From the NCBI GenBank assembly GCA_964569795.1, contig CAZMVB010000001.1, positions 195,233-259,232 on the forward strand: a stretch of 64,000 nt of DNA. Reading direction: 5' to 3'. Of this stretch, positions 27,790-56,855 are shown piece by piece. The DNA is from an uncultured Desulfarculales bacterium. Lineage in GTDB: Bacteria > Desulfobacterota > Desulfarculia > Desulfarculales > JAHJDS01. Each line of letters opens with the position of its first letter. The first letter of the stretch is position 1. The translations under genes and the position numbers were made by a program. The notes below the pieces were generated by a model. That model saw nothing but the letters and a program-made list of their open reading frames with translations, was not told the origin of the DNA and did no database searches.

Positions 27790-28383
27790 ATGTTGTTTCG
27801 GGGATTGCCCAGGGTGGTCAATCTACCCAACACCCTGACCCTGTCGCGCATCATCAGCGTGCCCCTGGTGGTCTGGCTGTTGTGGGTCCCCGAGCCCGCG
27901 CCCGAGAGGAACCTGGCCGCGGCGGTCATCTTCGGCCTGGCCGCGGCCACGGACCTGCTCGACGGTTTCCTGGCCCGCCGCCGCGACGCGGTCACGGCCG
28001 TGGGCAAGCTCCTGGACCCGGTGGCCGACAAGCTCCTGGTCGCCGCCGGGCTGATCATGCTCGCCCTGGCCGGACGGGTGCCGACCTGGATGGTCTGGGT
28101 CATCCTGGGACGCGAGGTCCTGGTCAGCACCATCCGGGTCCTCGCCCTCAGGGAGGGCCTGATCATCTCCGCCCATTTCCTGGGCAAGAACAAGGCCCTG
28201 TTTCAGATGACCGCCATCTTCTTCCTGATCCTGGACAGCCACATCATAGTCTGGGGAAATCTGTCCCTGGGGATGCTGCTCATCTGGGTGGCCCTGGTCC
28301 TGACCGTCATCTCCGGGGCCGAGTACCTCTGGCGCTTCGGCTATCTCTTTTTGGGGCCGGGAAACGGCAACGCAAAATCTTGA
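27790..28383 (+). CDS. pgsA: CDP-diacylglycerol--glycerol-3-phosphate 3-phosphatidyltransferase
   Basis: NLPNTLTLSRI... and the CDP-alcohol phosphotransferase motif DLLDGFLARR...GKLLDPVADK. Confidence 0.9.
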   Translation: MLFRGLPRVVNLPNTLTLSRIISVPLVVWLLWVPEPAPERNLAAAVIFGLAAATDLLDGFLARRRDAVTAVGKLLDPVADKLLVAAGLIMLALAGRVPTWMVWVILGREVLVSTIRVLALREGLIISAHFLGKNKALFQMTAIFFLILDSHIIVWGNLSLGMLLIWVALVLTVISGAEYLWRFGYLFLGPGNGNAKS

Positions 28384-28420
28384 CAACCCCAATTCCCTGG
28401 GCTAACCTCATAGCTCTTGA

Positions 28421-28495
<75 letters not shown>

Positions 28496-28499
28496 AAAA

Positions 28500-28575
28500 G
28501 GCGGCATAGCCAAGTGGCTAAGGCAGCGGTCTGCAAAACCGTTATTCACCGGTTCGAATCCGGTTGCCGCCTCCA
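28500..28575 (+). tRNA. tRNA-Cys (anticodon GCA)
   Basis: The acceptor is GGCGGCA/TGCCGCC, the anticodon loop is CTGCAAA, the T-arm is ACCGG-TTCGAAT-CCGGT, and CCA is encoded. Confidence 0.9.
28551..28575 (+). repeat. Direct repeat copy 1 (3' end of tRNA-Cys; attL-like)
   Basis: GGTTCGAATCCGGTTGCCGCCTCCA is identical over 25 nt to 56831-56855. Confidence 0.85.
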
Positions 28576-28721
28576 TTGTTTCGATTAAAATCAATTAAAT
28601 ACTTTTGTGAATTGCCGGGAAACGACCGGGAAAAACCGCGAAAAATCAATGCCCGCTCTCTAGCTTCACCACCTTGTCTTTCCGGTACAATTTAACCAGG
28701 CGCGTCGCATCTGCTCCAGAA

Positions 28722-28872
28722 GGCTTCCCCCGCCCGCGCGGGGATCGACCTTCGAGAGCCCGCTCGATCCTCCCCCTGGTCTGGTTTCCCCCGCCCGCGC
28801 GGGGATCGACCGGTCATCTCCTCGAGGCTGAATTCATTCTGATCGTTTCCCCCGCCCGCGCGGGGATCGACC
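28722..28872 (+). CRISPR. Orphan mini-CRISPR array, type I-E-like repeats (3 repeats, 2 spacers)
   Basis: There are three 29-nt repeats: GGCTTCCCCCGCCCGCGCGGGGATCGACC (28722-28750), GGTTTCC... (28783-28811) and CGTTTCC... (28844-28872). They are separated by unique 32-nt spacers (28751-28782, 28812-28843). The internal palindrome CCCCGC/GCGGGG and the 29/32 geometry match E. coli-type I-E arrays. No cas genes are in the window. Confidence 0.7.
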
Positions 28873-28997
28873 CGTACGACCCGGCTTCGAGGTCCATTTT
28901 TCTTGGCCAATCAAACTCTAGTTCTTATTAAAAGTAACCACAACTGAAAATAATGGCCGATATTTTTTGTATTAGTAAAATCGTGGATGAATTTTTA

Positions 28998-29026
28998 TTG
29001 ACAACAATCAGGGCGTCGAATAAGAT
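28998..29026 (+). promoter_or_regulatory. Sigma-70-type promoter candidate for the XRE-cupin regulator/ort cluster
   Basis: TTGACA-17 nt-TAAGAT in AT-rich DNA, about 80 nt upstream of the ATG at 29108. Confidence 0.35.
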
Positions 29027-29107: not shown

Positions 29108-29734
29108 ATGCCAAAAAAACGACAGGTTATATCATCTGAGGCGGCCGCGGCCGAAGGCCTTGCACCTGTTTCCACCCTGGAGGTGGTCTCGGAGCGATTG
29201 GGCGCCAAGATCAGACGGATCCGGAACGCCGAGCGTCTGACCCTTTCCGACCTGGGTGAAAAAACTGGTCTGAGCGTCAGCTTCCTGTCCCAGGTGGAAC
29301 GGGACCTCAACGATCCGTCGATCAACTCCATGCGCAAGATCGCCAATGCCCTGGGTTGCCCCCTGACCACCTTTTTCGAGGACCAGTTCCAGTCAGCCGG
29401 GCCGGTGGTCCGCAAGCACGAGCGGCGGGTCCTGTTCAACACCCAGTCCCGCCTGACATATCAGCTTCTATCCCGGTTTCAGGGCGGCCGCATCGAGTTG
29501 CTGATGACCATGCTCGAGCCGGGGACCGCCAACGTGGAGCAGCCCATGTCCCACATCGGCGAGGAGGCGGCCCTGATCATTCAGGGCGAATGTTGGTTCG
29601 AATTGGGAGAGGAAGGGTTCAGCCTCAACGAGGGTGACGCCATCTATATCCACGAAAACAAGGCCCACCGGTTCACCAACACCGGCGCGGAGACCTTGAT
29701 AATCGTGTCGGCCATTTCACCGCCCGGGTTCTGA
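29108..29734 (+). CDS. XRE-family HTH transcriptional regulator with C-terminal cupin domain (PuuR-like architecture)
   Basis: The HTH_3 segment reads LGAKIRRIRNAERLTLSDLGEKTGLSVSFLSQVERD. The cupin segment reads GEEAALIIQGECWFELGEEGFSLNEGDAIYIHENKAHRFTN. Confidence 0.85.
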   Translation: MPKKRQVISSEAAAAEGLAPVSTLEVVSERLGAKIRRIRNAERLTLSDLGEKTGLSVSFLSQVERDLNDPSINSMRKIANALGCPLTTFFEDQFQSAGPVVRKHERRVLFNTQSRLTYQLLSRFQGGRIELLMTMLEPGTANVEQPMSHIGEEAALIIQGECWFELGEEGFSLNEGDAIYIHENKAHRFTNTGAETLIIVSAISPPGF

Positions 29735-43559: not shown

Positions 43560-44807
43560 ATGTCTTCCGTCCCTCACGAGCCTGACGCGCCCGAATCCCA
43601 GGCACCGGAGGTCGCTTTCCGGACCCTGTTCATCGTCCTGGCCATTGCCGTGGCCGTGTCCAACCTGGGGGCCGGATTCATCTCGCCCCTGCTGCCGGTG
43701 TACGCCCAGATGATGGGCGCCGGGGGCTTTCTGATCGGGCTGATATTTTCGTCCTTTTCCGTGGCCCGGGTGATCTTCATGCCCCTGGCCGGGGCCGCCT
43801 CAGACCGCTGGGGGCGCAAGACCTTCATCATGGCCGGCCTGTTCTTTTATGCCCTGTGTTCGGTCGGTTACATCTTCGCCCAGGAGGCCTGGCTCCTGGT
43901 GGGCATTCGGTTTTTCCAGGGGATGGCCTCGGCCCTGGTCTTCCCCATCGCCATGGCCGCCGTGGCCGACCTGACCCCCGTGGAAAAGGCGGGCACCGTG
44001 GTCGGGTCCTTCAACGCCCCGGTCTATATCGGCCTGGGATTTGGTCCGTTGCTGGGCGGGATCATGGCCGACTGGATCAGCATCGAGGTCAATTTCTGGG
44101 CCATGGGCGTGTTGAGCCTGTCCGCCCTGCTGGTCGTGGCGATCCTGATGCCCCGGATCGGCCGGCGCAAGAAAAAGAGCCCGGTCCGGATCAAATCGTG
44201 GGCCATGCTGGCCGACGGCACCTTTCGGGCGGTCTTTGCCCTGCGCTTTGCCCAGTCCGTGGGCCTGGGGGTGATGACCGCCTTCCTGCCGCTGTTGGGG
44301 CATATGATCGGACTGTCCATGGCCGTTCTGGGCATCGGCCTGGCGGTCAAGATCCTGACGGCGGCCCTGCTGATGCGCCCCCTGGGCAAGCTGGCCGACC
44401 GCTACAACCGGGTGATTCTGTGCGCTGTCGGGTCGTCCCTGTGCATGATGTCCTTGTTGGCGGCGACGATCATCGACGAGGTGATCGGTTTCTTCGCGGT
44501 CTGCCTGATGTGGGGCACGGCCAGCGCCCTGAGCGTGCCGGCCATGACCACCCTGGTCATCGCCCGGGGCAAGATGCTCGAGGCCGGCATGGGCCGGGCC
44601 ATGGGCCTGTTCAACCTGGCCCTGTCAGCCGGTTTCGCCACCGGGCCCATCACCCTGGGCGGCTTCTACGATCTGATGAAGCCCGACGGCGCCTTCCTGG
44701 CCGCGGCCGGGGTGCTGCTAACCGGGATCGTCGTCTTCCTGAGCCAGGTCAAGCGGCTCCAGGTGGTGGCCCGGCCGGCCCCTTCGGCGGTTTCGGGTCC
44801 GGCCTGA
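43560..44807 (+). CDS. MFS transporter
   Basis: About 12 TM segments. The MFS motif A-like segment is PLAGAASDRWGRK, between TM2 and TM3. Confidence 0.85.
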   Translation: MSSVPHEPDAPESQAPEVAFRTLFIVLAIAVAVSNLGAGFISPLLPVYAQMMGAGGFLIGLIFSSFSVARVIFMPLAGAASDRWGRKTFIMAGLFFYALCSVGYIFAQEAWLLVGIRFFQGMASALVFPIAMAAVADLTPVEKAGTVVGSFNAPVYIGLGFGPLLGGIMADWISIEVNFWAMGVLSLSALLVVAILMPRIGRRKKKSPVRIKSWAMLADGTFRAVFALRFAQSVGLGVMTAFLPLLGHMIGLSMAVLGIGLAVKILTAALLMRPLGKLADRYNRVILCAVGSSLCMMSLLAATIIDEVIGFFAVCLMWGTASALSVPAMTTLVIARGKMLEAGMGRAMGLFNLALSAGFATGPITLGGFYDLMKPDGAFLAAAGVLLTGIVVFLSQVKRLQVVARPAPSAVSGPA

Positions 44808-46290
44808 GGCCGCGGCCGGTCGGCTCCCGGTCCGGGCCCCGGGCCGAGCCGTCGCGCCGGGGATCGGCCACGCCGATGAACTCGTCCCTCTCCAGAAGGA
44901 CCAGTTGCACGCAACCCAGGTAAAAGGAATAAGGCCCGCGCCTCACCACCCTGAAGCCGCGCCGAGCAAGTTCCAGGGGCACCTCTGGTCTCATCCGCGA
45001 GGCCTCCAGGCTGACCCGCCCCTCGACCGAGCAGTGGAGCCGGGGCGCGCTGACCGCCTCCAGGGGCGGCTGGCTTGCCAGACGCAGCATCACCTGGACC
45101 ATGGCCGGGGCGATCCGGGAACTGCCCGGCGAGCCGATGACCAGCCAGGGTTTTTTGTCACGCAAGACGATGGTCGGGGCCACCTGGGACCAGGGCAGGG
45201 CCCCGGGCCGCAGGTAGTGGGGGTGGTTCTCGTCGTCGTACTCGAAGGAGCCCATGTAGTTGTTGTAAAGAAAACCCAGGTCGGGACACATCGTCCGGGC
45301 GCCGAAGGCCCGTTCCACGGACTGGGTCAGGGACACGGCGTTTCCGAAGACGTCCATGATTGACAGGTGGGTGGTGTGGCCGCCGCCCAGGGCCCGCCGG
45401 CGATCGCTGGGCAGATCGTCGCGTTCGAGCAGGGTTTGGCGGATGGTCTGGGCCAGGCGGACCGCGCCGGCCGGGTCGTCCGGGTCGCACGGGTCGTCCG
45501 TGGCATAGCCCAGCCGGTCCAGCATTCTTAAGAGGGCCTCGCCCGCCCCGGGCGGGCCGTCACTGAAGACCTCCCGGTCGCCGAACCTTCCCGTCACCGG
45601 CGCCCTTGATTCGGGCCAGGGAATCCGGGCCAGGTCAGAGGCCTGGATCAGACCACCGTGGTCGGCCATGTCCCGGCAGATCAGCCGGGCGATTTCGCCC
45701 TGGTAGAAGTCCTCGATCCCCTGCCCGGCCAGGCGTCTGAGCGTTTCGGCCAGGGCCGGCTGCCGAATGATCATCCCGGGCGCGGGGGGTAAGGCCCCGT
45801 CTTTCAGGAAGACCTCCCCGGCCGGGCCGCCCCGCAGCCGGTGACACCACTTTTTGAGTCGGGAGGCCTGGAGGGGACTTACCGGAAAACCCTCCCCGGC
45901 CAGGGCCACGGCCGGCGCGATAAGTTCGGCCAGGGGCCGGGTGCCCAGCCGCCGCCGGGCGTATTCCAGGACGGCCGGGGTGGTGGGCACGGTCGAGGCC
46001 CGGTGGCCGTTGAACCGCTTCTCGGGGTTCGGCCGATGGCCCAGGGCCCGGGCCGGAGGCCGGGAGGTGCCGTCCAGGACAAAGACCCGGTCCTGGTTGG
46101 CCTGGTAAACGGTCATCACTGTTTGCCCGCCCAGGCCCGAGGCCGACGGCTCGCAGACGCTCAGGGCAAAGGCCGCCGCCACGGCGGCGTCAATGGCGTT
46201 GCCCCCGGTGGCGAGGATGCGGGCGGCCGGGTCGGTGGCCAGGTCGCGGGCCGTGGAGACCATGCCCCAGGGCGAGGCGGCCTGCCGCAT
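44749..46290 (-). CDS. ggt: Gamma-glutamyltranspeptidase-family Ntn hydrolase, no signal peptide
   Basis: GGNAIDAAVAAAFALSVCEP, the autoprocessing/nucleophile context GGGHTTHLSIMD, and GSPGSSRI. The ATG at 46290 was preferred; the track ORF starts at a GTG at 46341, which would overlap the upstream gene. The 3' end overlaps the convergent MFS gene by 59 nt. Confidence 0.85.
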   Translation of the reverse strand: MRQAASPWGMVSTARDLATDPAARILATGGNAIDAAVAAAFALSVCEPSASGLGGQTVMTVYQANQDRVFVLDGTSRPPARALGHRPNPEKRFNGHRASTVPTTPAVLEYARRRLGTRPLAELIAPAVALAGEGFPVSPLQASRLKKWCHRLRGGPAGEVFLKDGALPPAPGMIIRQPALAETLRRLAGQGIEDFYQGEIARLICRDMADHGGLIQASDLARIPWPESRAPVTGRFGDREVFSDGPPGAGEALLRMLDRLGYATDDPCDPDDPAGAVRLAQTIRQTLLERDDLPSDRRRALGGGHTTHLSIMDVFGNAVSLTQSVERAFGARTMCPDLGFLYNNYMGSFEYDDENHPHYLRPGALPWSQVAPTIVLRDKKPWLVIGSPGSSRIAPAMVQVMLRLASQPPLEAVSAPRLHCSVEGRVSLEASRMRPEVPLELARRGFRVVRRGPYSFYLGCVQLVLLERDEFIGVADPRRDGSARGPDREPTGRGLRPDPKPPKGPAGPPPGAA

Positions 46291-46306
46291 GGGCCCGCGG
46301 CCGCAG

Positions 46307-48493
46307 TCAGGCCCCGAGGGCCGGCGGGTCGAGGCGGGCACGTTCGTCCCTCGGCTGTCCGATTAGAAAACGGGCCAACAAAAGCGTTCGCTGGACGAGG
46401 CTGATGCGCTGGACCGCCTCCCGGGGGGTGCACAGGTCCCGGGTCATCGGTCCCAGGCCGCTCAGGGCGGGCACCCCCGATGGGGCCAGCCCGGCCACCG
46501 TGGGCCAGCGCGAGGACATGGCCTTGAGGGTCACGTCCCATTCGCCGGCCGCGGCGGCCAGGGTCCGGACCAGGTTCTGGCCGCCGGGATCGGGCATCAG
46601 GGGCGGACGGTCCGAGATCAGGTTCAGGCTGGCCCCGAGTCCGTCGGGGACGAACAGGTCCCTGATCTTGGCCTCGAGGGCCAGGGCCTTGTCCAGGTCC
46701 AGGTACGAGATCGAGATGGTGGCCACGGCCCGATGGGGCGGCGACAGGGGCAGGCTGACCGTGTGCAGGTTCGAGACGAAGACCGTCACCTCCTCGGCCG
46801 GATCGGTCAGCCCCAGGGCCTCGTCGAGCCGGGCCAGCAGGCGGCGGATCAGGCGCGGTCTCTCCCGGGGAGGTCCGGTGGGCACCTCCCGGGCCGTGAC
46901 CTGGAGGCGGTACTGGCGCAGGCCCCGGGCCTGGTTGACCAGCCGATCCTCGCGGGTGGCGGGCCGCAGGACCAGGACCTGGCCGGCCTTGTCCATGGCC
47001 CGCCGGATCAGGTCCCGGCTGTACCGGCAGTCGGCCCCCTCATCGGCGTAGGCCAGCACCCCCAGGGGCCGGTGCCGCAGGAGCTGATGGTGCCGCAGGG
47101 CGGCCAGGGCGAACCGGACCATGGCCCAGGGCGCCCGGGCCTGGCCCACTCCGTCGCCGGACAGCCACTCTGGATCGCGCCGAAAGGCCTGCCACGGCAT
47201 GGCGGCGTCCATCGGGACGTCCAGGTGACCGACCAGCAGGGTCCCGCCTTCGAGGCCGGCCTCGGTTTGCCAGGTCCAGACCGTCTTCTGGTCCGACAAT
47301 TCGTTCACCGGCGTCAGTCCCAGGCCGACCAGCTTGTCGTCCAGTCGCTGCTGGGCCATCTGGATCCCGACCGGATCGTCGGTCCGGCTGGACAGGGCGC
47401 ACCACTTTTCGACCTCGCGCTCGAGCTGGTCCCGGTGGGCGGTGACGTGGTCGAACATTGCCCGGCTGACGTCCTGTTTTCGGCCGCCGATCCGGGGCGC
47501 GGCCGGCGTCCCGAAGTAGCGGGCCGCGGCCACCTCGATCAGGCGGTTCATCAGGGCGTTGTAGTCGAACCCCATGGCTGCGGCGGCAATGACGTAGGAC
47601 CCCCGGGGGCCGATGCTGGGCAGGCTGTTGATCTCCAGCAGGTACAACTCGCCCGAGGCGTCAAGACGCAGATCCACCCGCGCGCAATCATAGCAGCCCA
47701 GGGCCTTGAAGGCCCGCAGGGCGATGTCCCTGGCCTGGGCGGCCGTCTCCTCGGAAAGGGACGCCGGACAGACGACCCGGTTGGTCCGGCCGGACAGCCC
47801 CCTCTTGTCCTCGTAGGTATAGATGGGCGGACCGCTTTTACCGAAGATGATCTCGGCCGGCCGGAAGGTCTCGGGCGGATTGTTGCCCAGGACCCCGACG
47901 TTGATCTCCCGGCCGGCGATGAACCGCTCGACCAGGGCCGGCTGCTGAAAGGTCTCGAAGATGACGTCGGTCGCGGCCCGCAACTCGGCCTCGGTCTCGA
48001 CGATCTTGACCCCGAAGGAGACGGCCTCGTTCTTGGGCTTGGCGATCAGGGGATACTCCAGCTCCGGCGGGGGAAAGTCGGGTCCGTCCAGGACCACGAA
48101 GTCCGGGGTGGGCAGCCCGGCCTGCTTGAACAGGACCTTGGCCACGACCTTGTCCAGGGCCAGGGAGTGGGCCAGCGGCCCGGAGCCGACGTAGGGGATG
48201 CCGACCATTTCCAGGATGGACGGGACGTGGGTGTACCGGGCCTGGCCCTGGATGCCGTAGGACAGGTTGAACACCAGACCCGGCCGCTCGCCCTTGACCA
48301 CCCGGGGCATGAACTCCTCGAGCCGGTCGATCAGGTCCTTGTCCCCCTCGAAGGCGGCCACCTGGTGGCCGCCGGCCTTGAGGGCCTTGACAATGCCCCG
48401 GATCGTGTCCTCGGCGTACTTCTCCCGGTTGGGGATGCCGAAGAGGTTGATGACGTTCTGGCTTTCCCAGTTGTAAACGACCGCGATCTTCAC
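46307..48493 (-). CDS. Fusion protein: Ddl-like ATP-grasp ligase (N) + M20-family peptidase-like domain (C)
   Basis: The N-terminal ~330 aa read MKIAVVYN...LDKVVAKVLFKQAGLPTP...YPLIAKPKNEAVSFGV...ARVDLRLDASGELYLLEINSLP (ATP-grasp). The C-terminal ~390 aa read LLVGHLDVPMD...LAYADEGADC (M20-like HxD and DE motifs). GTG start. Confidence 0.8.
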   Translation of the reverse strand: MKIAVVYNWESQNVINLFGIPNREKYAEDTIRGIVKALKAGGHQVAAFEGDKDLIDRLEEFMPRVVKGERPGLVFNLSYGIQGQARYTHVPSILEMVGIPYVGSGPLAHSLALDKVVAKVLFKQAGLPTPDFVVLDGPDFPPPELEYPLIAKPKNEAVSFGVKIVETEAELRAATDVIFETFQQPALVERFIAGREINVGVLGNNPPETFRPAEIIFGKSGPPIYTYEDKRGLSGRTNRVVCPASLSEETAAQARDIALRAFKALGCYDCARVDLRLDASGELYLLEINSLPSIGPRGSYVIAAAAMGFDYNALMNRLIEVAAARYFGTPAAPRIGGRKQDVSRAMFDHVTAHRDQLEREVEKWCALSSRTDDPVGIQMAQQRLDDKLVGLGLTPVNELSDQKTVWTWQTEAGLEGGTLLVGHLDVPMDAAMPWQAFRRDPEWLSGDGVGQARAPWAMVRFALAALRHHQLLRHRPLGVLAYADEGADCRYSRDLIRRAMDKAGQVLVLRPATREDRLVNQARGLRQYRLQVTAREVPTGPPRERPRLIRRLLARLDEALGLTDPAEEVTVFVSNLHTVSLPLSPPHRAVATISISYLDLDKALALEAKIRDLFVPDGLGASLNLISDRPPLMPDPGGQNLVRTLAAAAGEWDVTLKAMSSRWPTVAGLAPSGVPALSGLGPMTRDLCTPREAVQRISLVQRTLLLARFLIGQPRDERARLDPPALGA

Positions 48494-48517
48494 CGTAATA
48501 CCTTTCGGCCAACGCCT

Positions 48518-49642
48518 TCAGCCGACAAAGGTGGAGGTCAGTCTAGCCAGGCCGATTTGATACACCGGCCGGGTGTAGTCATCCAGCCAGTAGGCCCCGG
48601 GGTTGCTCGGAAAGATCAGGAACCGCCCCCGGTCCTGGCGGCCGGGGGCCCGGTGGAACCGCATGAACACCTGGCCCTCGGCCAGGCCGACGATCTCGAT
48701 CTTTCCCCGGGCATGGGACATGACGAACCGGGCCCGCTTGGCCAGGCCCGAACACCGGGCCCGGGCCCCCTCGACGATCAAATAGGCCTCCTCCACGGGC
48801 ACGGCGTAGGTCCGGTTGCCCACCGTGGGACGGCACTGGAACACGTAGTAGGGGGCCACCCCGAGGAAGGACAGCTCGCTCCACAACCGGGCCAGGTCCT
48901 CCGGATCGTCGTTGACCCCCCGGATCAGCGGGGTCTGCTGACAGATGGCCGCCCCGGTCCGCTGGAGCAGCCCGACGGCCTCCCGTGCCGGCCGGCTCAG
49001 CTCCCGCCAGTGGTTGAACTGGATCATGAAGTACAGCCGCCTGTCTCCCCGGGAAAAACGCGCGGCCAACCCGAGCAGGGCCGGGTCGTCCAGGATCCGC
49101 CACGGATTGAAGGCCGGCATCTTGGTCCCCAGCCGGACGATTTTCACGTGATCGATGGCCATCAACTCGCCGAGGATCGACTCCAGGGCCGGCGTCGAGC
49201 GCATCAAGGCGTCTCCGCCGGTCAGCAGGACGTTGTTGACCTCGTCATGGGCGCGGATGTAGGTGATGCCCTGGCTGACGTCCTTCGAGACCTCCTCGGA
49301 TCGCTCGAAGAACAGGCGCTTGCGGAAGCAGAAGCGGCATCGGCCGCCGCACAGATCGCTGACCAGCAGGACGGCCGTGGACGGGTATTTGTGCTGGAGG
49401 CCCGGCAGGATGGTGTAACTGGCCTCCGCGGAGGGGTCGGTCTGCCCCCAGGGTTCCAGTTCGGCCGCGTCCGGGATGATGATCCGGCGAATGGGGTCGG
49501 CCGGGTCGTCCCAGTCGATCAGGGACAGATAGTAGTCGTTGGCCCCGAATTCGAATTCCCGGGCCACCGGCTCGAGAGTTTTTCGTACAGTGGCCCGCAG
49601 ACCGAGGACCTGGTCCAGCGCGGACACGTATTTCGGTGTCAT
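48518..49642 (-). CDS. Divergent KamA-family radical SAM/PLP aminomutase-like protein (substrate unknown)
   Basis: CGGRCRFC (CxxxCxxC), GGDALM and VNDD are present. It reads YYVFQCRPTVG and FVMSHARGK where lysine 2,3-aminomutases have QCD and DAPGGGGK. The ATG at 49642 lies 7-8 nt after AGGAG. Confidence 0.8.
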   Translation of the reverse strand: MTPKYVSALDQVLGLRATVRKTLEPVAREFEFGANDYYLSLIDWDDPADPIRRIIIPDAAELEPWGQTDPSAEASYTILPGLQHKYPSTAVLLVSDLCGGRCRFCFRKRLFFERSEEVSKDVSQGITYIRAHDEVNNVLLTGGDALMRSTPALESILGELMAIDHVKIVRLGTKMPAFNPWRILDDPALLGLAARFSRGDRRLYFMIQFNHWRELSRPAREAVGLLQRTGAAICQQTPLIRGVNDDPEDLARLWSELSFLGVAPYYVFQCRPTVGNRTYAVPVEEAYLIVEGARARCSGLAKRARFVMSHARGKIEIVGLAEGQVFMRFHRAPGRQDRGRFLIFPSNPGAYWLDDYTRPVYQIGLARLTSTFVG

Positions 49643-49728
49643 CGGTTTGCTCCTGAACAAAAAGAGCCTGAGATCGCTCTTGGTTGTCTTCCTGGGTCAG
49701 GTCTTGATTCACGCCGGGTGACCTCCTG

Positions 49729-50316
49729 TTAGTGTAAAAAGGGGATCCGGAAGAAGAGGAACCAGCCGTTGACCAGCAGCAGGCATCCCCCGCCGGCCAT
49801 GGCCATGGCCATGATGAAGAACCGACCCGAGGCGGCGATCATGGCGATGGAGGCCAGGATGATGGCGATCTGGAGGAAGACCTGGCTGTAGTCGAGATAG
49901 GGGTCCCGGTCCTGTCCCAGGGCCAGCAGTCTTTCCTGGGCCCGGGCGTCCTTCATGATCTTGGCCTTCTCGGCCTTGAAGCGCCCCACCTCGGCCTTCA
50001 TCCGGGCCACGCGGTCCACCAGGCGCCTTTTGGCCTCGGGGGTCATGGTCCCCCCGCGCTCGACCAGGCTCAGTTCCATCAGGCCGGTCAGCGAGGCGTA
50101 AAGGTGCTGGCGGATGGTCTTGGCCTGGTAGTAGGCCCACTGGTTCGAGGCCCTCTGCTGGGCCAGCATGATTTCCTTGGTGTTGTTGCCGCCGACCAGG
50201 GCGGCGATGGACAGCAGCACGGCAAAGACAGCCGTGGTCAGACCGACCCGCTTGGTGAACGGGCTGACGCCCTTGTCCGCGTGCCTGTCCGGTTCGGGCA
50301 GTTCCATATCGACCAT
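49729..50316 (-). CDS. DUF4337-like membrane protein
   Basis: It has a TM segment (GLTTAVFAVLLSIAALVGG), a coiled region (NQWAYYQAKTIRQ...) and a C-terminal TM pair. This matches my recollection of the DUF4337 architecture. Confidence 0.65.
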   Translation of the reverse strand: MVDMELPEPDRHADKGVSPFTKRVGLTTAVFAVLLSIAALVGGNNTKEIMLAQQRASNQWAYYQAKTIRQHLYASLTGLMELSLVERGGTMTPEAKRRLVDRVARMKAEVGRFKAEKAKIMKDARAQERLLALGQDRDPYLDYSQVFLQIAIILASIAMIAASGRFFIMAMAMAGGGCLLLVNGWFLFFRIPFLH

Positions 50317-50372
50317 GTCTCGTGTCGCTCCGAATCATCTCCGCCCGGAAACTCGTCCCGGCCGGCTGCGGT

Positions 50373-50918
50373 TCAGTTCAGGCGGCCGACCCGTTCTGAC
50401 CGCTCGGCCGCGGCTTTTCTCCGGGAAACGCCCACCACCTTGACGAAGATGACCTTGTCGTCCTCGGGGGCGTAAAAGTCCTCGAGGCGGGCCGTCTCGA
50501 CGTATCCCCGCCCCTCGTAGAAACCCCGGGTCGGCGCGTACTTGGGGCCGGACGAGGTATCGACGTAGATCCGGCGCCCTCCGGCCTTGATCACCCGCCG
50601 CTCGACCTCGGCCAGCAGCAGGCGACCGATGCCCTGGCCCCTCAGGTTCCGCCAGACCACGATCCAGTACAGGTCCCAACTGCTGGCCGTGGCGGGAATG
50701 GGACCGTAACAGGCGTAACCCAAGGGGGAGTCGTCCAGTTCGGCGAACAGGAAATGGTAACCGCTGTCCAGCCCCTTGGCCAGGCGCTCCTCGACCAGTT
50801 GGCCGGCGATCTCGACCTCTTCCCGGTGGAAAAAGCCGGAGCCGGCACACATCCGCCGCACCAGGTCCGGGTCGGTCGCCTTGACCCGGTCGCGCCAGGT
50901 TAGTTTGGAACGCCGCAC
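50373..50918 (-). CDS. GNAT-family N-acetyltransferase
   Basis: The acetyl-CoA motif A is WRNLRGQGIGRLLLAEVERR. The GTG at 50918 lies 14 nt after the upstream stop. The longer track ORF (to 51284) overlaps the upstream gene out of frame. Confidence 0.75.
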   Translation of the reverse strand: MRRSKLTWRDRVKATDPDLVRRMCAGSGFFHREEVEIAGQLVEERLAKGLDSGYHFLFAELDDSPLGYACYGPIPATASSWDLYWIVVWRNLRGQGIGRLLLAEVERRVIKAGGRRIYVDTSSGPKYAPTRGFYEGRGYVETARLEDFYAPEDDKVIFVKVVGVSRRKAAAERSERVGRLN

Positions 50919-50932
50919 CCCAGCCCCCTGAC

Positions 50933-52021
50933 TCAGGCCGTGACCGACCGCTCGTCCGGCCGCGGCCCGGTCCCGAGGGCCGCCGGTAACGGCCAGGCTT
51001 CGGTCCGGCCCCGGCGGCCGGGACCGGGCCGGTTGGCGTCGGCCATGATCCGGGACAGCACCTGGGCCGGGGACAGGCCGGCCCGCTGGGCGGCGGCCAT
51101 GAAGCCGGCCTCGGCCTCGAGACAGGGATTGGCGTTGGCCTCGAGGATAAAGGGGCGGCCGTCCGTATCCACCCGGAAGTCGATCCGGGCCCAGCCCCGA
51201 AAACCGAAGCAGCGCCAGGCCGCCAGGCTCAAGTCGGTCAGGGTCTGAAGCAGGGCCCGGTCGCCCTCGGGAAAATCGAAGCAACGTCGGGTGTGCCGGT
51301 ACTCAAAGGAATTTTCAACCCACTTGGCCCGGTAACCGACCACCCGGGGCCGGTCGGGACCATAGCCCTCGAACTCGATCTCGGCCGGGGGCAGCGCCTC
51401 GGGGCCGGTCTCGGTGGCCAGAAGGGACAGGTTGAATTCCCGGCCGGGGACAAACGCCTCGGCAAAGTAACGGACGCCCGTGACGTGAAAGAGGTCCTGG
51501 AGCCGCTCCCGGATTTGATCCGGGTCGTCGCCCGGGACCACCGAGTCGTCGTCCAGGCCCCTGGAGCCGTGCTCCCAGACCGACTTGATGATGTATTGGG
51601 AGGCCGGGGGTTCCGGCGAGATGAAACAGCGGTCGTCGAGCCACCCCGGGGTGGGCAGGCCGGCCCGGCAAAGGGCCGCCTTGGCCGCCAGCTTGTCCGA
51701 GGACAGGGCCATGGCCCGTCCGTCGGCCCCGGTGAAGGCCAGACCCAGGGTGGCCAGCAACTCGGGCGGCCGGTGGATCAGGCGTTCCTCTCCCCAGGGG
51801 GCCTCGACCAGATTGAAGACCAGGTCCGGGGCGGAGTTGATCAGCCGGCTCAGCGCGGCGGTCGATCCGGACCAGGCCGCCCGTTCCACCCGATGCCCCA
51901 GGTCCGCCAGGAGGCGGGACACCTGGTCGGCCTGGACCAGGTTGTCCTGCCGGTCCGGATCCAGGGTCACCCCGGGCGGGTCGTGGAGGACCACGATCTT
52001 CATGGTCGCCGTCTCCGTCAT
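50933..52021 (-). CDS. Ddl-like ATP-grasp ligase 2
   Basis: MKIVVLHD..., SSDKLAAKAALCRAGLPTP, YIIKSVWEHGSRGL, and WARIDFRVDTDGRPFILEANANP. The ATG at 52021 overlaps the upstream stop (ATGA). Confidence 0.8.
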   Translation of the reverse strand: MTETATMKIVVLHDPPGVTLDPDRQDNLVQADQVSRLLADLGHRVERAAWSGSTAALSRLINSAPDLVFNLVEAPWGEERLIHRPPELLATLGLAFTGADGRAMALSSDKLAAKAALCRAGLPTPGWLDDRCFISPEPPASQYIIKSVWEHGSRGLDDDSVVPGDDPDQIRERLQDLFHVTGVRYFAEAFVPGREFNLSLLATETGPEALPPAEIEFEGYGPDRPRVVGYRAKWVENSFEYRHTRRCFDFPEGDRALLQTLTDLSLAAWRCFGFRGWARIDFRVDTDGRPFILEANANPCLEAEAGFMAAAQRAGLSPAQVLSRIMADANRPGPGRRGRTEAWPLPAALGTGPRPDERSVTA

Positions 52022-53052
52022 GAGGACCCCAGGGCCGCCCGAAAGGGGCCTGTCCCCGTCCGCGGCCAGGTCCGGTCGAGCCCGGCGCGCTTGCGGGCGG
52101 AGCGGACGATCCGGTCGATCAGCTCGGAAAAAGATATCCCGGCCAGACCGCACAGGATCGGCAGGTCCGAGTGATGGGGGTGCAGGCCGGCCAGGGGGTT
52201 GATCTCCAGGAAGTGGGGCCGGCCCGATTTGTCCAGGCGGATATCAACCCGGCCGGCGTCCCGGCAGCCGAGGCCGCGGTAAACCGCCAGGGCCAGGGCG
52301 GCGATGTCCCGGCCCTCGGCCCGGCCGGCCAGCCGGTAGCTGACCCGGTGCTCGCTCTCTTCCTTGTTGACGAACGAGTACACCCCCGGTTCGGCCCCCG
52401 GCCCCAGGAGGACCTCCATCACCCCCACCACCTCGGCCCGGGCCCCGGTGCCGACGATCCCGACGGTGAACTCCCGGCCCGGCAGAAAGGTCTCGACCAG
52501 GACCGGCTGGCGATAGGCGGCCAGCAGGTCGCGGCAGGCCCGCACCAGGGCGGCCCGGTCCATCAGGCGCGAGCCCGGGCCGATGCCCTTGCCCGTGCCC
52601 TCGGCCACGGGCTTGGCGAACAGGGGGAAGGGCAGATCGATCTCGGGGGCCTCCTCGATGGAGCTGACCACCGCGAAATCGGGCGTGGGCAGACCCAGGT
52701 CCCGGACCACCCGCTTGGCCATGCCCTTGTGCAGGGTCAGGGTCAGCACCAGCGGATCGGAAAAGGTGTAAGGCAGACCAAAAGCCTCGAGCAGGCAGGG
52801 CACCTGGGCCTCCCGCCCGTAGCCGGACACGCCCTCGGCGATGTTGAACACCAGGTCCCAGCGCCGGCCCTCGGCCAGACGCTCCACCAGGCGCGGCAGG
52901 CGGCCGATCCGCTCGGGCTGATGGCCCAGGCCGGCCAGGGTCTCCTCCAGGGCGGCGACGGTCTCCTCAGAGTCGAATTCAGCCACCTCTTCGGGGCCGA
53001 AGCCGGCCGCCCGGTAGTCATCCCGCAGGTCATAGGTCAGGCCGATGTGCAT
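52018..53052 (-). CDS. Ddl-like ATP-grasp ligase 1
   Basis: TLHKGMAKRVVRDLGLPTP, FPLFAKPVAEGTGKGI, and AGRVDIRLDKSGRPHFLEINPLAGL. Confidence 0.8.
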   Translation of the reverse strand: MHIGLTYDLRDDYRAAGFGPEEVAEFDSEETVAALEETLAGLGHQPERIGRLPRLVERLAEGRRWDLVFNIAEGVSGYGREAQVPCLLEAFGLPYTFSDPLVLTLTLHKGMAKRVVRDLGLPTPDFAVVSSIEEAPEIDLPFPLFAKPVAEGTGKGIGPGSRLMDRAALVRACRDLLAAYRQPVLVETFLPGREFTVGIVGTGARAEVVGVMEVLLGPGAEPGVYSFVNKEESEHRVSYRLAGRAEGRDIAALALAVYRGLGCRDAGRVDIRLDKSGRPHFLEINPLAGLHPHHSDLPILCGLAGISFSELIDRIVRSARKRAGLDRTWPRTGTGPFRAALGSS

Positions 53053-53065
53053 CTGACACCTCGGA

Positions 53066-54406
53066 TCATGAGCACCCGGCGCCGGTGTCCGGGTAGAGGT
53101 AGAGATCGTCCCGGAAGTTGCGGAGGATCAGGTTGCCTCCGTCCCGGCCGGCCACCGCCTCGGGACAGAGGGCCACCTTGCCGCCCCCGCCCGGGGCGTC
53201 GATGACATAGGTCGGCACGGCGTAGCCGCTGATGTGGCCCCGCAGGCCCTGGATGATCTCGAGCCCCTTGGCCACCGCGGTCCGGAAGTGGGCCGAGCCG
53301 GAGATGGGGTCGCACTGGTACAGGTAGTAGGGTCGGACCCGCATCCGGAGCAACCCCCGCATCAACTCGGCCATGGTAGCCACGTCGTCGTTCACCCCGG
53401 CCAGGAGCACCGTCTGGCTGCCCAGGGGGATGCCGGCGTTGGCCAGACGGGCGCAGGCCGCCGCCGCCTCGGGGGTCAGTTCCAGGGGATGGGTGAAGTG
53501 GAGGCTCATGAACAGGGGGTGGTAGCGCTTGAGCATCCGGACCAGACCGGTGGTGATCCGCTGGGGCAGCACGGCCGGGACCTTGGTCCCCAGGCGGATG
53601 ATCTCGACGTGCTTGATTTGGCGGAGACGGGCCAGGATCCACTCCAGGTTGCGGTTGCTCAGGGTGAGCGGATCGCCGCCCGAGACGACCACGTCACGGA
53701 TCTGCGGCGTGGCCTCGATGTAGGCCAGGGCCGCCTCGAGGCGGCGCCGGCCGCTGTGCCCCCCGCCGTGCCCGCCCACCAGGCGCGAGCGGGTGCAGTA
53801 GCGGCAGTAGGTCGAACAGAACCGGGTGACCAGCAGCAGGACCCGGTCCGGATAGCGATGGACCAGCCCCGGGGCGACCTCGTCCGCCGACTCGCCCAGG
53901 GGGTCGTCGGCCTCGCCCGGGCCGACCACGGACTCGGCAGTAACCGGCACGACGCACCGCCGGATGGGGTGCCCCGGGTCGTCGGGGTCGATCAGACTGA
54001 GGTAGTAAGGCGTGACCGCCATGGGCAGCCTCCGCTCCCCCCCGGAAAAGGCCTGGGCCTCCTCCGGGGTCAGCCGAATCATCGGATCGAGTCGTCCCGG
54101 ACCGGTCACCCGATGGCGGAGCTGCCACCGCCAGTCGTTCCAGTCGGCCCGGGTGCTGTCCGGGAAAAACCGCTGGTAAAAGGCCTTGGCCCGCTGGTTG
54201 ACGATGATGCCGTTGGTCTGCTTGACGGCTTCGAGTCTGGCCCTCGATCGGACGGGATCATCGTCCGTCTCCAGGGGAACGGCCAGGGTCAGCGCCCCTC
54301 GGGAGGGAGGTTTGTCTTCCTCGGTCGAGGATTCCCCTCTGTCCCCCAGGGGCGCGGCGCCGGCCGCCGCCTCGCTTCGGGCCGCCAAGCGGTCTTTCCG
54401 GGTCAT
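53066..54406 (-). CDS. kamA: Lysine 2,3-aminomutase (radical SAM/PLP)
   Basis: CSTYCRYCTR radical-SAM cluster, SGGDPL, GVNDD, YYLYQCDPISGSAHFR and YVIDAPGGGGK (both lysine-epsilon-binding Asp positions and the PLP Lys context). The ATG at 54406 lies 5-6 nt after GGAGG. Confidence 0.9.
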   Translation of the reverse strand: MTRKDRLAARSEAAAGAAPLGDRGESSTEEDKPPSRGALTLAVPLETDDDPVRSRARLEAVKQTNGIIVNQRAKAFYQRFFPDSTRADWNDWRWQLRHRVTGPGRLDPMIRLTPEEAQAFSGGERRLPMAVTPYYLSLIDPDDPGHPIRRCVVPVTAESVVGPGEADDPLGESADEVAPGLVHRYPDRVLLLVTRFCSTYCRYCTRSRLVGGHGGGHSGRRRLEAALAYIEATPQIRDVVVSGGDPLTLSNRNLEWILARLRQIKHVEIIRLGTKVPAVLPQRITTGLVRMLKRYHPLFMSLHFTHPLELTPEAAAACARLANAGIPLGSQTVLLAGVNDDVATMAELMRGLLRMRVRPYYLYQCDPISGSAHFRTAVAKGLEIIQGLRGHISGYAVPTYVIDAPGGGGKVALCPEAVAGRDGGNLILRNFRDDLYLYPDTGAGCS

Positions 54407-54459
54407 TTTCACCTCCAAACTCAAGTTGGGTTCATTCCTGCCCTCCGGGCGGCCGGTCC

Positions 54460-54726
54460 TCAATCCAGGAGCCGGTAGCCTTCCACCCGGATCAATCCCT
54501 CACCCCGGGCCGAACGCCTCCGCCGGCCCGTGACCATCACCTCGCGCCCGACCAGGTGGTCGATCCCTTTGGCCGAACCGGACGTCTCGACCCGGTACTC
54601 CTGTTCGTCAAAGGTGGACAGGACCACGCCAATCACCCGCCCGTCCCGATCCCACTCCACGGGGATGATCAGGCCGCGGATCTCGATCCGCTCGCCACCG
54701 TCGGACTCGGTTCGGGTCACGTCCAC
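54460..54726 (-). CDS. Small (88 aa) hypothetical protein, first gene of the sigma-54 operon
   Basis: An open frame with a GTG start about 70 nt downstream of the predicted sigma-54 start site. It is beta-rich and charged and ends ...RVEGYRLLD. I recognise no family. Confidence 0.45.
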   Translation of the reverse strand: MDVTRTESDGGERIEIRGLIIPVEWDRDGRVIGVVLSTFDEQEYRVETSGSAKGIDHLVGREVMVTGRRRRSARGEGLIRVEGYRLLD

Positions 54727-54804
54727 CTCTCGGCCAGGGCGGTCAATGATTACCTGGCCCTCAGCGGCCCCAAGGGGCCCCGCTGATGGCCCGCGCCCTG
54801 TAAT

Positions 54805-54820
54805 GGCAACGGCCGTGCCA
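54805..54820 (-). promoter_or_regulatory. Sigma-54 (-24/-12) promoter
   Basis: The minus strand reads TGGCACGGCCGTTGCC, which matches TGGCACG-N4-TTGCW at every position except the last. It lies about 80 nt upstream of the first ORF and downstream of an EBP gene and palindromic sites. Confidence 0.75.
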
Positions 54821-54873
54821 TATTTTTAATTTATTGTTTTAATTGAATAAATTTAAAGCAAGCGGCCAGTTCA

Positions 54874-54888
54874 GGAACTACGAGTTCC
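54874..54888. promoter_or_regulatory. Palindromic upstream activator site A (GGAAC-N5-GTTCC)
   Basis: GGAACTACGAGTTCC followed by GAT, about 55-70 nt upstream of the -24 element. Confidence 0.55.
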
Positions 54889-54977
54889 GATATCAGATCG
54901 AAAAGGCAGACAGGGCCGGGCCATGGCGGGAGTCTTTTTGGACAACTTATTGAATTTACATTAACTTATTAAATTTG

Positions 54978-54992
54978 CGAACCGGAAGTTCC
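54978..54992. promoter_or_regulatory. Palindromic upstream activator site B
   Basis: CGAACCGGAAGTTCC followed by GAT, preceded by the AT-rich module TTACATTAACTTATTAAATTTG. Confidence 0.55.
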
Positions 54993-55007
54993 GATTAAAC
55001 GCGACTC

Positions 55008-55022
55008 AGAACTCAGAGTTCC
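55008..55022. promoter_or_regulatory. Palindromic upstream activator site C
   Basis: AGAACTCAGAGTTCC followed by GGT. Confidence 0.5.
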
Positions 55023-55062
55023 GGTTTGACAGCCATGGATTGACATTAATTTATTAAATATA

Positions 55063-55077
55063 CGAATGAGAAGTTCC
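55063..55077. promoter_or_regulatory. Palindromic upstream activator site D
   Basis: CGAATGAGAAGTTCC followed by GAT, preceded by the AT-rich module TTGACATTAATTTATTAAATATA, which is nearly identical to the module before site B. Confidence 0.5.
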
Positions 55078-55123
55078 GATCAATGACGATTCAGAAGGCG
55101 GGTTTCGATTTAATAACCATTGG

Positions 55124-56572
55124 CTACTTATAATCCTCCTTGCGCAGCCCATGCCTGGTCATCAGTTTGTGGAGTTGCCGGGTGGTCACGCCGGCGGCCC
55201 GGGCACTCTTGTCGATGCGGCCCTGGTTGGCGGTCAAGATCGACTGGAGGTATTGGCGCTCGATCAGTTCCAGGCCGCGGCGGCGGACCTCGGCCAGGGG
55301 CGGGGCGGCCGGGGTCTCGCCCGGGGGCGGGAGGGACCGGGTGGCCAGGAGCTCGACCGGGACCACGTCCACGGTCAGGACCGGTGAGTTGGCCAGGATG
55401 TAGGCCCGCTCGATGATGTTTTCCAGTTCGCGGATGTTGCCCGGCCAGTAGTATCCGGTCAGGGCGGCCATGAGTTCGCTTTGCACGCCCTTGATGTTCT
55501 TGCCGTAGGTCCGGTTGAGCCGCCCCAGGAGGCCCTCGACCAAAAGGGGGACGTCCTCGGTCCGGTCCCGCAGGGCGGGCAGGTCGATGGGGAAGACGTT
55601 GAGCCGGTAAAAAAGGTCCCGCCGGAACAGACCCTTGTCGCAGAGGTCGGCCAGGTCCTGGTTGGTGGCGGCCACGATCCGGACGTCCACCTCGATGGGG
55701 ATCTCGCCGCCGACCCGGCTGAATTGCTTTTCCTGAAGGACCTCGAGGAGGCGGATCTGGGTGGCCGGACTGACGGTGCCGATCTCGTCCAGGAAGATGG
55801 TCCCCCCCTGGGCGATCTCGAACTTGCCCAGCTTGCGCTTGACGGCGCCGGTGAAGGCGCCCTTTTCATGGCCGAAGAGTTCGCTTTCGATCAGGGTCTC
55901 GGCCATGGCCCCGCAGTGCACGGCGATGAAGGGTCCCTCGGCCCGGTGGCTCAGGCCGTGGATGACCTTGGCCATCAGGCTCTTGCCGGTCCCGGTTTCA
56001 CCGGTGAGCAGGACCGTGGTCTTGGTCCTGGCCACCGACTTGATCTTGTCCAGGGCCGACTTCATGGCCGGGGAGTCGGTCCGCATCCCCCGGAACAGGT
56101 CGCCCCGCCACGAATTCTCCCGGAGGTGGGCCAGTTCGGACTCGATCTGCCGCCACTCGGACAGGCTGTCGATGACAAAGCCGATCTCGGCCGGATCCAC
56201 GGGATAGGTCAGATATTCGCTGGCCCCGGCCCTGACGGCGGTCACCGCCCGCCGGATCTGGGCCTGGTCGGACATGACGATGATCGGGGCGGTGGCGTAG
56301 GCCTCCCAGTAGGGCTGCAGGGCCTGGGTGTAGTCGGCCCGGCCGTCGCGGTTCGGGCCGCTCTCCAGAAACGATAGGTCGATGAAGGTGTACTCGTACC
56401 TCTTGCGCCTGAACGTCTCCAGGCAGGCCTCCCTGGTGGCGGCCAGATCGACCTTGAATTCGCGGTCGAAGTGGGCCCGGATGATCTCGGCCGCCTCGTG
56501 GTTGGTCGTGCCCAGCAGAATTGACTTCAAGACCGCACCCGGTGTTCGTTTTGGGGCAAGTCTAGACCACAC
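55124..56572 (-). CDS. Sigma-54-dependent transcriptional activator (NtrC-type EBP) with atypical receiver domain
   Basis: The AAA+ core has [15 protein letters not shown] (Walker A), the GAFTGA loop (EKGAFTGAV) and [10 protein letters not shown]. The C-terminal Fis-type HTH is [21 protein letters not shown]. The N-terminal ~120 aa are receiver-like. GTG start after GGAAGAGG. Confidence 0.9.
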
Positions 56573-56830
56573 CCTCTTCCTGGCGCAATTTTTTTAGTCG
56601 CCGGCCGAGGACCTGTCGGGTGAAGTTAAGTCGGGCGAAGGGGGAAGACAACCGGAGGCCGCCACCTATTTTTCGCGGAGGCGCTGCTGGGCGCCTGCGA
56701 CCGGGCCTGGCTGGTCCTGGGCTTCGCCACCTCCGCCGCCCAGGTGGGGCCCTGATCCGGTTTGACCGGGAAACGCACAGAATATCTTTTAAAATACCAA
56801 AAACAACAAAATGTTATATGGATGTTAAGT

Positions 56831-56855
56831 GGTTCGAATCCGGTTGCCGCCTCCA
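56831..56855 (+). repeat. Direct repeat copy 2: orphan 3' fragment of tRNA-Cys (attR-like)
   Basis: GGTTCGAATCCGGTTGCCGCCTCCA is identical to 28551-28575. No upstream tRNA body is present, and it is preceded by AT-rich DNA. Confidence 0.85.

Follow-up and report, generated by a model that had tools for sequence, protein, structure and literature searches.

The window, by which we mean the whole stretch of 64,000 nucleotides that was analyzed, carries two adjacent tRNA genes on its plus strand, tRNA-Gly(GCC) at 28421-28495 (ARAGORN; Rfam tRNA, 71.9 bits) and tRNA-Cys(GCA) at 28500-28575 (ARAGORN and Rfam), and a small CRISPR array begins 147 bp downstream of this pair. An AT-rich, leader-like stretch (28576-28722) fills the interval, and the array itself is made up of repeat 1 (28723-28751), spacer 1 (28752-28783), repeat 2 (28784-28812), spacer 2 (28813-28844) and repeat 3 (28845-28873), all on the plus strand, which gives the repeat in its transcribed orientation, the same as that of the tRNAs. 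The rest of a genome-specific segment follows (28874-28940), and then a promoter-like site, TTGACA-17-TAAGAT (28998-29026, plus strand), of a downstream gene for an HTH-cupin regulator (29108-29734). The last 25 nt of tRNA-Cys recur exactly, with no tRNA body, at 56831-56855 on the plus strand, and this 25-bp att-like duplication (28551-28575 and 56831-56855) brackets 28.3 kb, with the array just inside its left copy. The placement of the array at the edge of an att-bearing tRNA, as first proposed from the sequence, is thus borne out.

The bracketed 28.3 kb encodes, besides the HTH-cupin regulator, a PLP-dependent enzyme, an M28 peptidase, an amidohydrolase, an alanine dehydrogenase, a branched-chain amino-acid ABC transporter, an MFS transporter, a gamma-glutamyltranspeptidase, two ATP-grasp ligases, radical-SAM and lysine-aminomutase-like enzymes, and a sigma-54 activator. 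Pfam scans of most of its predicted genes brought up neither an integrase nor any gene of conjugation or of a phage; at 0.660, the GC content of the segment equals that of both flanks. An att-like scar is present, and the segment is no longer recognizably mobile. One part of it merits mention in its own right: a minus-strand cluster at 44749-54463 groups the gamma-glutamyltranspeptidase with ATP-grasp (D-Ala-D-Ala-ligase-like) proteins of 728 and 406 amino acids, a radical-SAM protein, a DUF4337 protein, and a lysine-2,3-aminomutase-like radical-SAM enzyme with a DUF5818 partner, and is adjoined by the sigma-54 activator. From its predicted domains, this cluster looks like a small pathway of peptide or amino-acid modification.

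The array comprises three near-identical 29-nt repeats and two 32-nt spacers. The direct repeats start at 28723, 28784 and 28845, a spacing of 61 and 61, and share a 26-nt core, TTCCCCCGCCCGCGCGGGGATCGACC, that is the same in all three; allowing up to three mismatches, this core has three matches in the window and none in 100 dinucleotide-preserving shuffles. The sequence-only reading had described a mini-array of three repeats and two spacers, and the regular period and the shuffles show that it is real, with the spacer sequences given correctly. That reading had begun the repeats at 28722, 28783 and 28844 (spacers 28751-28782 and 28812-28843); its coordinates are accurate, but its register lies one base to the left of the one followed by the wider repeat family. 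The differences it had reported among the repeats are likewise real and, in the family register, fall at positions 2 and 29. The sole true difference within the array is at position 2, which is C in repeat 1 but T in the other two; taken together (84 nt), the three 28-nt bodies differ by a single substitution. Position 29 reads T, G and C in repeats 1, 2 and 3, respectively. In type I-E adaptation as known from E. coli, the last base of the repeat derives from the protospacer side. Across 64 related arrays this base is variable as well (C 0.50, G 0.27, T 0.20), so the T, G and C seen here are normal and no sign of decay; the final C of repeat 3 is the commonest form in the family, and that repeat is not degenerate.

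A degenerate scan for the repeat, with one genome per species, recovered at least 120 loci, mostly long arrays, in Dehalococcoidia, Myxococcota, Acidobacteriota, Magnetococcales and other MAGs, and the nearest of these repeats, such as GGTTCCCCCGCCCGCGCGGGGATAGACCC, are 2-3 mismatches from that of the mini-array. Across the 64 family arrays (at least 10 repeats each), the 61-nt period is kept in 3210 of about 3300 intervals. The hairpin of the family is followed by a handle, AT.GACC, of which the mini-array has the version ATCGACC. All five of the genomes with nearest repeats that were tested encode Cas6e (PF08798), which makes the type I-E assignment sound. The membership of the mini-array in a type I-E repeat family is thus well supported, and the type I-E-like identity read earlier from the 29/32-nt layout and the hairpin stands, now with the family repeats and their Cas6e-encoding genomes behind it. 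Many leaders in the family lie directly 3' of a conserved coding end and stop codon that, judged by eye from the sequence, resembles the end of cas2. Plasmid BLAST matches to the array are other arrays with the same repeat type (Streptomyces, Rhizobium, Bosea and Hydrogenophilus), and the Rfam scan returned the two tRNAs and no CRISPR-DR match. The exact repeat had no match in 185,579 species genomes or in IMG/VR, and the metagenome scan for it gave one noisy, unrelated soil array (L139); none of these exact-repeat scans produced a source locus.

Each repeat contains a hairpin, CCCCGC-N4-GCGGGG, predicted to fold as a 6-bp GC stem with a tetraloop (-14.7 kcal/mol). Stable GC hairpins that are co-oriented with a tRNA operon and lie directly downstream of it, where no intrinsic terminator is predicted, could have a function outside CRISPR, either as REP-like elements or in termination or processing for the operon, or could be used by the type I-C system that resides in the host. 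Several observations argue against such roles. A search of the whole host assembly (4,395,398 bp, 81 contigs) found no further copy of the repeat; this single genomic site speaks against a dispersed REP-like element without spacers, the possibility that the sequence-only reading had held out against itself, and REP-like dispersal was rejected on this ground. The repeats also keep a strict 61-nt period around unrelated 32-nt spacers, belong to an I-E repeat family, and have no U-tract after their hairpins. The I-C repeat differs both in sequence and in its 3' handle (ATTGAAAC vs ATCGACC), a difference for which use by the resident I-C system was rejected as well, as far as sequence comparison can tell. 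We regard a function of this sort as very improbable. Elsewhere in the assembly, contig 40 (C40:33875-34243) carries about five tandem copies of a ~90-nt unit with GCGGCCACTGCCGCCCGCGGCA, running into the contig end; these lack a spacer structure of the CRISPR kind.

The array is GC-rich (0.702) and lies between AT-rich flanks (0.449 over the 147 bp upstream and 0.432 over the 234 bp downstream, in a genome of 0.652). The flanks thus have the AT-richness that was ascribed to them, and the upstream stretch is at most a putative leader. An nhmmer profile built from 43 I-E leaders has no match in the window; BLAST of the stretch against plasmids and phages gave nothing meaningful, and only its terminal CCAGAAG resembles the leader-end consensus C.AAGG. 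Neither a strong promoter of its own nor a terminator is predicted within 28576-28722. Because the array has the same orientation as the tRNA genes, with no terminator and no strong promoter of its own predicted, it is plausible that it is transcribed by read-through from the tRNA-Gly/tRNA-Cys operon. The promoter-like site at 28998-29026 lies outside the array and is common to the sister species. A 31-nt imperfect direct repeat (71%), GCCGGGAAACG..., occurs upstream of tRNA-Gly (28356-28386) and again in the AT-rich stretch (28614-28644); it may reflect chance or a partial duplication of the region upstream of the tRNA operon.

The only other genome of the genus, that of a sister species (G001; 600 contigs), provides the closest comparison. 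Its ortholog of the first cargo genes is 87% identical in nucleotide sequence, and in the alignment homology between the two species starts at about 28941 and takes in the promoter at 28998-29026. What is specific to the host is therefore a segment of about 365 bp (28576-28940), made up of the AT-rich stretch, the array and a further 67 bp. At the position occupied in the host by the array, the sister species has a tyrosine integrase gene and an HTH_17 excisionase-like gene preceding the ortholog. The initial remark that the array sits where an integrase would be expected has thus found support, with the integrase and HTH_17 pair on the same side of the same cargo gene. The DNA downstream of tRNA-Cys in the sister species is unrelated, and the right-hand part of the 28.3 kb (53000-56800) has no ortholog there. 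When tRNA-Cys synteny was compared across the order, relatives outside the genus, all of them from other families, were too diverged, with only tRNA-Gly matched, and no empty site was found.

The mini-array repeat was not found in the sister species, which fits a recent arrival. Orthologous DNA of the two species is 78-91% identical, and against this background a single substitution over 84 nt implies that the repeats either arose well after the species split or have been under selection since. We infer from these comparisons that the array is young. The mini-array repeat differs at 7 of 28 positions from GAGTTCCCCGCGGGCGCGGGGATGAACCG, the I-E repeat of the genus, and so comes from a different I-E lineage.

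Cognate I-E cas genes are absent from the host assembly. The searches for cognate machinery took in Cas6e, Cas7e and Cse1. Family searches of the assembly, which is 94.25% complete with 2.67% contamination, found no Cas6e (PF08798, TIGR01907), Cas7e (PF09344) or Cse1 (PF09481), and no generic Cas6 (PF01881) or type IV Csf2 (TIGR03115); tblastn with Cas5e and Cas6e of the sister species likewise gave no match in the host. The Cas6e search works in this clade, since it was positive in 16 of the 61 relatives searched, the sister species included. For the contig of the window, the six family searches (Cas1, Cas6e, Cas7e, Cse1, Cas6 and Csf2) were all negative, and most of the genes predicted from about 25.0 to 61.9 kb of the window were scanned with Pfam, with no cas gene among them, the first 25 kb being covered by the family searches only. 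The earlier statements that the window holds no cas gene and that the array is an orphan are both upheld by these searches.

The sole Cas1 of the host is part of a complete type I-C operon, found on contig 32 (locus L005:7009-19417), comprising Cas3, Cas5, Csd1/Cas8c, Cas7, Cas4, Cas1 and Cas2, which is the only cas operon of the genome. The array of this operon, which reaches the contig end, consists of at least 68 copies of a 32-nt repeat, GTCGCCCCCCGCGCGGGGGCGTGGATTGAAAC, unrelated to that of the mini-array. The sequence-only reading had stated beforehand that it would fail if no compatible Cas6e or Cascade existed anywhere in the genome and no transcript was detected; no such gene was found in the 94%-complete assembly. 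Within the limits of an incomplete assembly, the mini-array is unable at present to hijack Cas machinery of the host.

These limits bear on another explanation, namely that the mini-array works as a "distant" array, served by a cognate I-E operon in the unassembled ~6% of the genome or on an unbinned plasmid. The completeness and the 81 contigs would allow for this, the repeats are intact, and the use of arrays in trans is common (PMC7145637). However, three independent I-E families and the tblastn search with Cas5e and Cas6e of the sister species were negative, the sole Cas1 is that of the I-C system, and none of the host contig ends bears any part of the mini-array repeat. A type I-E cas operon is roughly 8 kb long, and unique sequence of this length normally assembles. 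We consider a hidden cognate operon quite improbable.

The sister species has an I-E locus, and its state is informative about the fate of the system in the genus. On contig 341 (L148:1-2352, minus strand), cas6e is intact, cas5e is frameshifted and split, and of cas1 only about 19 codons remain before it runs straight into the repeat GAGTTCCCCGCGGGCGCGGGGATGAACCG at the contig end. Genes for a TetR regulator and a 3-hydroxyacyl-CoA dehydrogenase occupy the place where cas7, cse2, cse1 and cas3 would be expected, and no Cas7e was found anywhere in the genome. Type I-E is being lost in the genus, and the locus of the sister species is in mid-decay. The host retains a solitary GAGTTCCCCGCGGGCGCGGGGATGAACCG repeat on contig 10 (C10:108547-108575, minus strand; L159:10547-10575), identical to the repeat of the sister species at 29 of 29 positions. 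A DnaB_C helicase gene begins 29 nt downstream of it, and genes for an HTH_17 protein and a tyrosine integrase come next, in DNA of lower GC content (0.53-0.61). Such a repeat could be the relic of a collapsed array; alternatively, an integrative element may carry it as a single-repeat, RNA anti-CRISPR-like unit. A search of 60 relatives for the helicase gave no close homologue, and its matches, of at most 46% identity, are probably chromosomal DnaB.

Neither spacer has a protospacer in the databases and genomes searched. Spacer 1 has a GC content of 0.69 and spacer 2 of 0.47. Against the host genome, the best non-self matches were 14-17 nt long, none beyond chance; blastn of the array region against GenBank phages and PLSDB plasmids gave no spacer match; and both spacers were without a match in IMG/VR with every sixth base left free, in 150 relatives with up to three further mismatches, and, in the search for anti-cas spacers, in 170 retrieved loci that included I-E cas neighborhoods. 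Judged by sequence matching in the host, 150 relatives, phages, plasmids, IMG/VR and the 170 loci, there is thus no evidence of spacers that target mobile elements, the host itself or cas genes. The suggestion that the spacers are aimed at competing elements finds no backing in the host, plasmids, phages, IMG/VR or the 150 relatives.

Could the array nevertheless be a weapon that is idle in its present host? On this account, it would be the guide-RNA cargo of a 28.3-kb element at tRNA-Cys, and Cas6e and Cascade of hosts with type I-E systems would use it to destroy competitors of that element. The array lies 147 bp inside the left copy of the 25-bp duplication; the sister species has an integrase and an excisionase at the same position beside the same cargo gene; with two spacers, it falls within what is defined as a mini-array (PMC11656645); the repeats are pristine; Cas6e genes occur in 16 of the 61 relatives searched; and the host has a solitary I-E repeat beside a module of integrase, excisionase and DnaB-like helicase. 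Against this account, the host has no I-E cas genes, and described mini-arrays carry repeats identical to those of their hosts (PMC11656645), whereas the host repeat here is I-C and the one I-E repeat observed in the genus differs at 7 of 28 positions. Moreover, searches with the spacers gave no match in the host and 150 relatives or among phages, plasmids and IMG/VR, the 28.3 kb holds no integrase, conjugation or phage gene and has a GC content (0.660) like that of its flanks, and neither IMG/VR nor the 185,579 species genomes contain the exact repeat. We consider a role as cargo for other hosts unlikely, and the original proposal of an array that hijacks the Cas machinery of its host is not supported: no Cas6e or Cascade gene was found in the 94%-complete assembly, no spacer target in the collections searched and no mobility gene in the 28.3 kb, whose GC content is no different from the flanks, and the upstream stretch has no profile similarity to I-E leaders. 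A more specific version, in which the array is maintained cargo of an integrase-less, cis-mobilizable tRNA-Cys island and has stayed intact because it moves among relatives, some of them I-E-bearing, and uses their Cas6e and Cascade against rivals, seems to us distinctly unlikely. If true, this version and the solitary repeat on contig 10 would together make I-E RNA parts a routine component of the mobile elements of this lineage.

The explanation that we favor, with moderate confidence, is that this is a genuine mini-array of the I-E family with three repeats and two spacers, young and orphan, stranded at a tRNA-Cys hotspot and inert in its host. The 61-nt period, the canonical hairpin with its AT.GACC handle, and the variable, spacer-derived last base point to I-E adaptation machinery, wherever this was located, as its maker. 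The array would have reached, or been left at, the tRNA-Cys integration hotspot recently, after the split from the sister species, the likeliest route being as part or remnant of DNA from an integrative element. It would now sit between the att-like end of tRNA-Cys and the promoter of the first cargo gene, possibly transcribed by read-through from the tRNA-Gly/tRNA-Cys operon. Lacking Cas6e, the host would not process a transcript to crRNAs, and nothing would be guided in the absence of Cascade or Cas3; the resident I-C system, with a different repeat and handle, should ignore it. We infer both the origin and the inertness of the array from this combination of features. Three points count against the favored reading. 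The assembly is 94% complete and in 81 contigs, and a replicon that was left unassembled or unbinned might carry an I-E operon; the repeats have hardly changed and the last shows no degeneration, which also fits a maintained functional element; and the site inside the att-like repeat also fits mobile cargo meant for I-E-bearing hosts.

The array offers a clean, well-delimited example of an orphan I-E array at a tRNA integration junction, in a genome whose sole cas operon is I-C. Such cases help to tell the decay of a chromosomal system from import on mobile DNA. In practice the consequence is modest: for annotation pipelines, the array should not count as evidence of active I-E immunity in the host.

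Three kinds of known systems invite comparison. Mini-arrays on viruses and other mobile elements carry one or two spacers and have been validated for Saccharolobus SPV1/SPV2; their repeat is typically that of the host, and their targets are related elements (PMC11656645). Like these, the present array has one or two spacers, here two, with no cas genes on the element, and lies at the edge of a segment with att-like boundaries. In contrast to them, its repeats do not come from the CRISPR system of the host, whose own repeat (GTCGCCCCCCGCGCGGGGGCGTGGATTGAAAC) is a different one and gives no compatibility with the resident CRISPR-Cas, and its spacers have no detectable target, with no match to related or competing elements in the databases, relatives and loci searched; the segment that carries it has neither mobility nor viral genes.

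With canonical type I-E arrays, such as CRISPR-1/2 of E. coli K-12 and, as the comparison set here, the GGTTCCCCCGC-N4-GCGGGGATAGACCC family in Dehalococcoidia, Myxococcota and Acidobacteriota MAGs, the mini-array shares the 29-nt repeat, the 32-nt spacers, the 61-nt period, the 6-bp GC stem with its tetraloop, the variable, spacer-derived last base and the orientation relative to an AT-rich upstream stretch. It differs from them in having no cas operon in cis or in trans and only two spacers. Its upstream stretch is unmatched to the family leaders by profile search, and position 24, in the handle, is C and not A.

Arrays that have no neighboring cas genes, or that differ in subtype from the cas cluster of their genome, form a described class (Bernheim et al. 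2020, PMC7145637), in which about 25% of "distant" arrays mismatch the subtype of the resident cluster and mismatched or orphan arrays are read as remnants or as derived from mobile elements. The array described here has in common with this class the lack of adjacent cas genes, a typable I-E repeat in a genome with only an I-C cluster, and a small size. Its three repeats are fewer than the average of eight for orphan arrays. An inert leftover, a known and fairly ordinary kind of feature, is most likely what it represents, and it also stands apart from other orphan and distant arrays in that its repeats are undecayed and it is placed exactly at a tRNA att-like junction.
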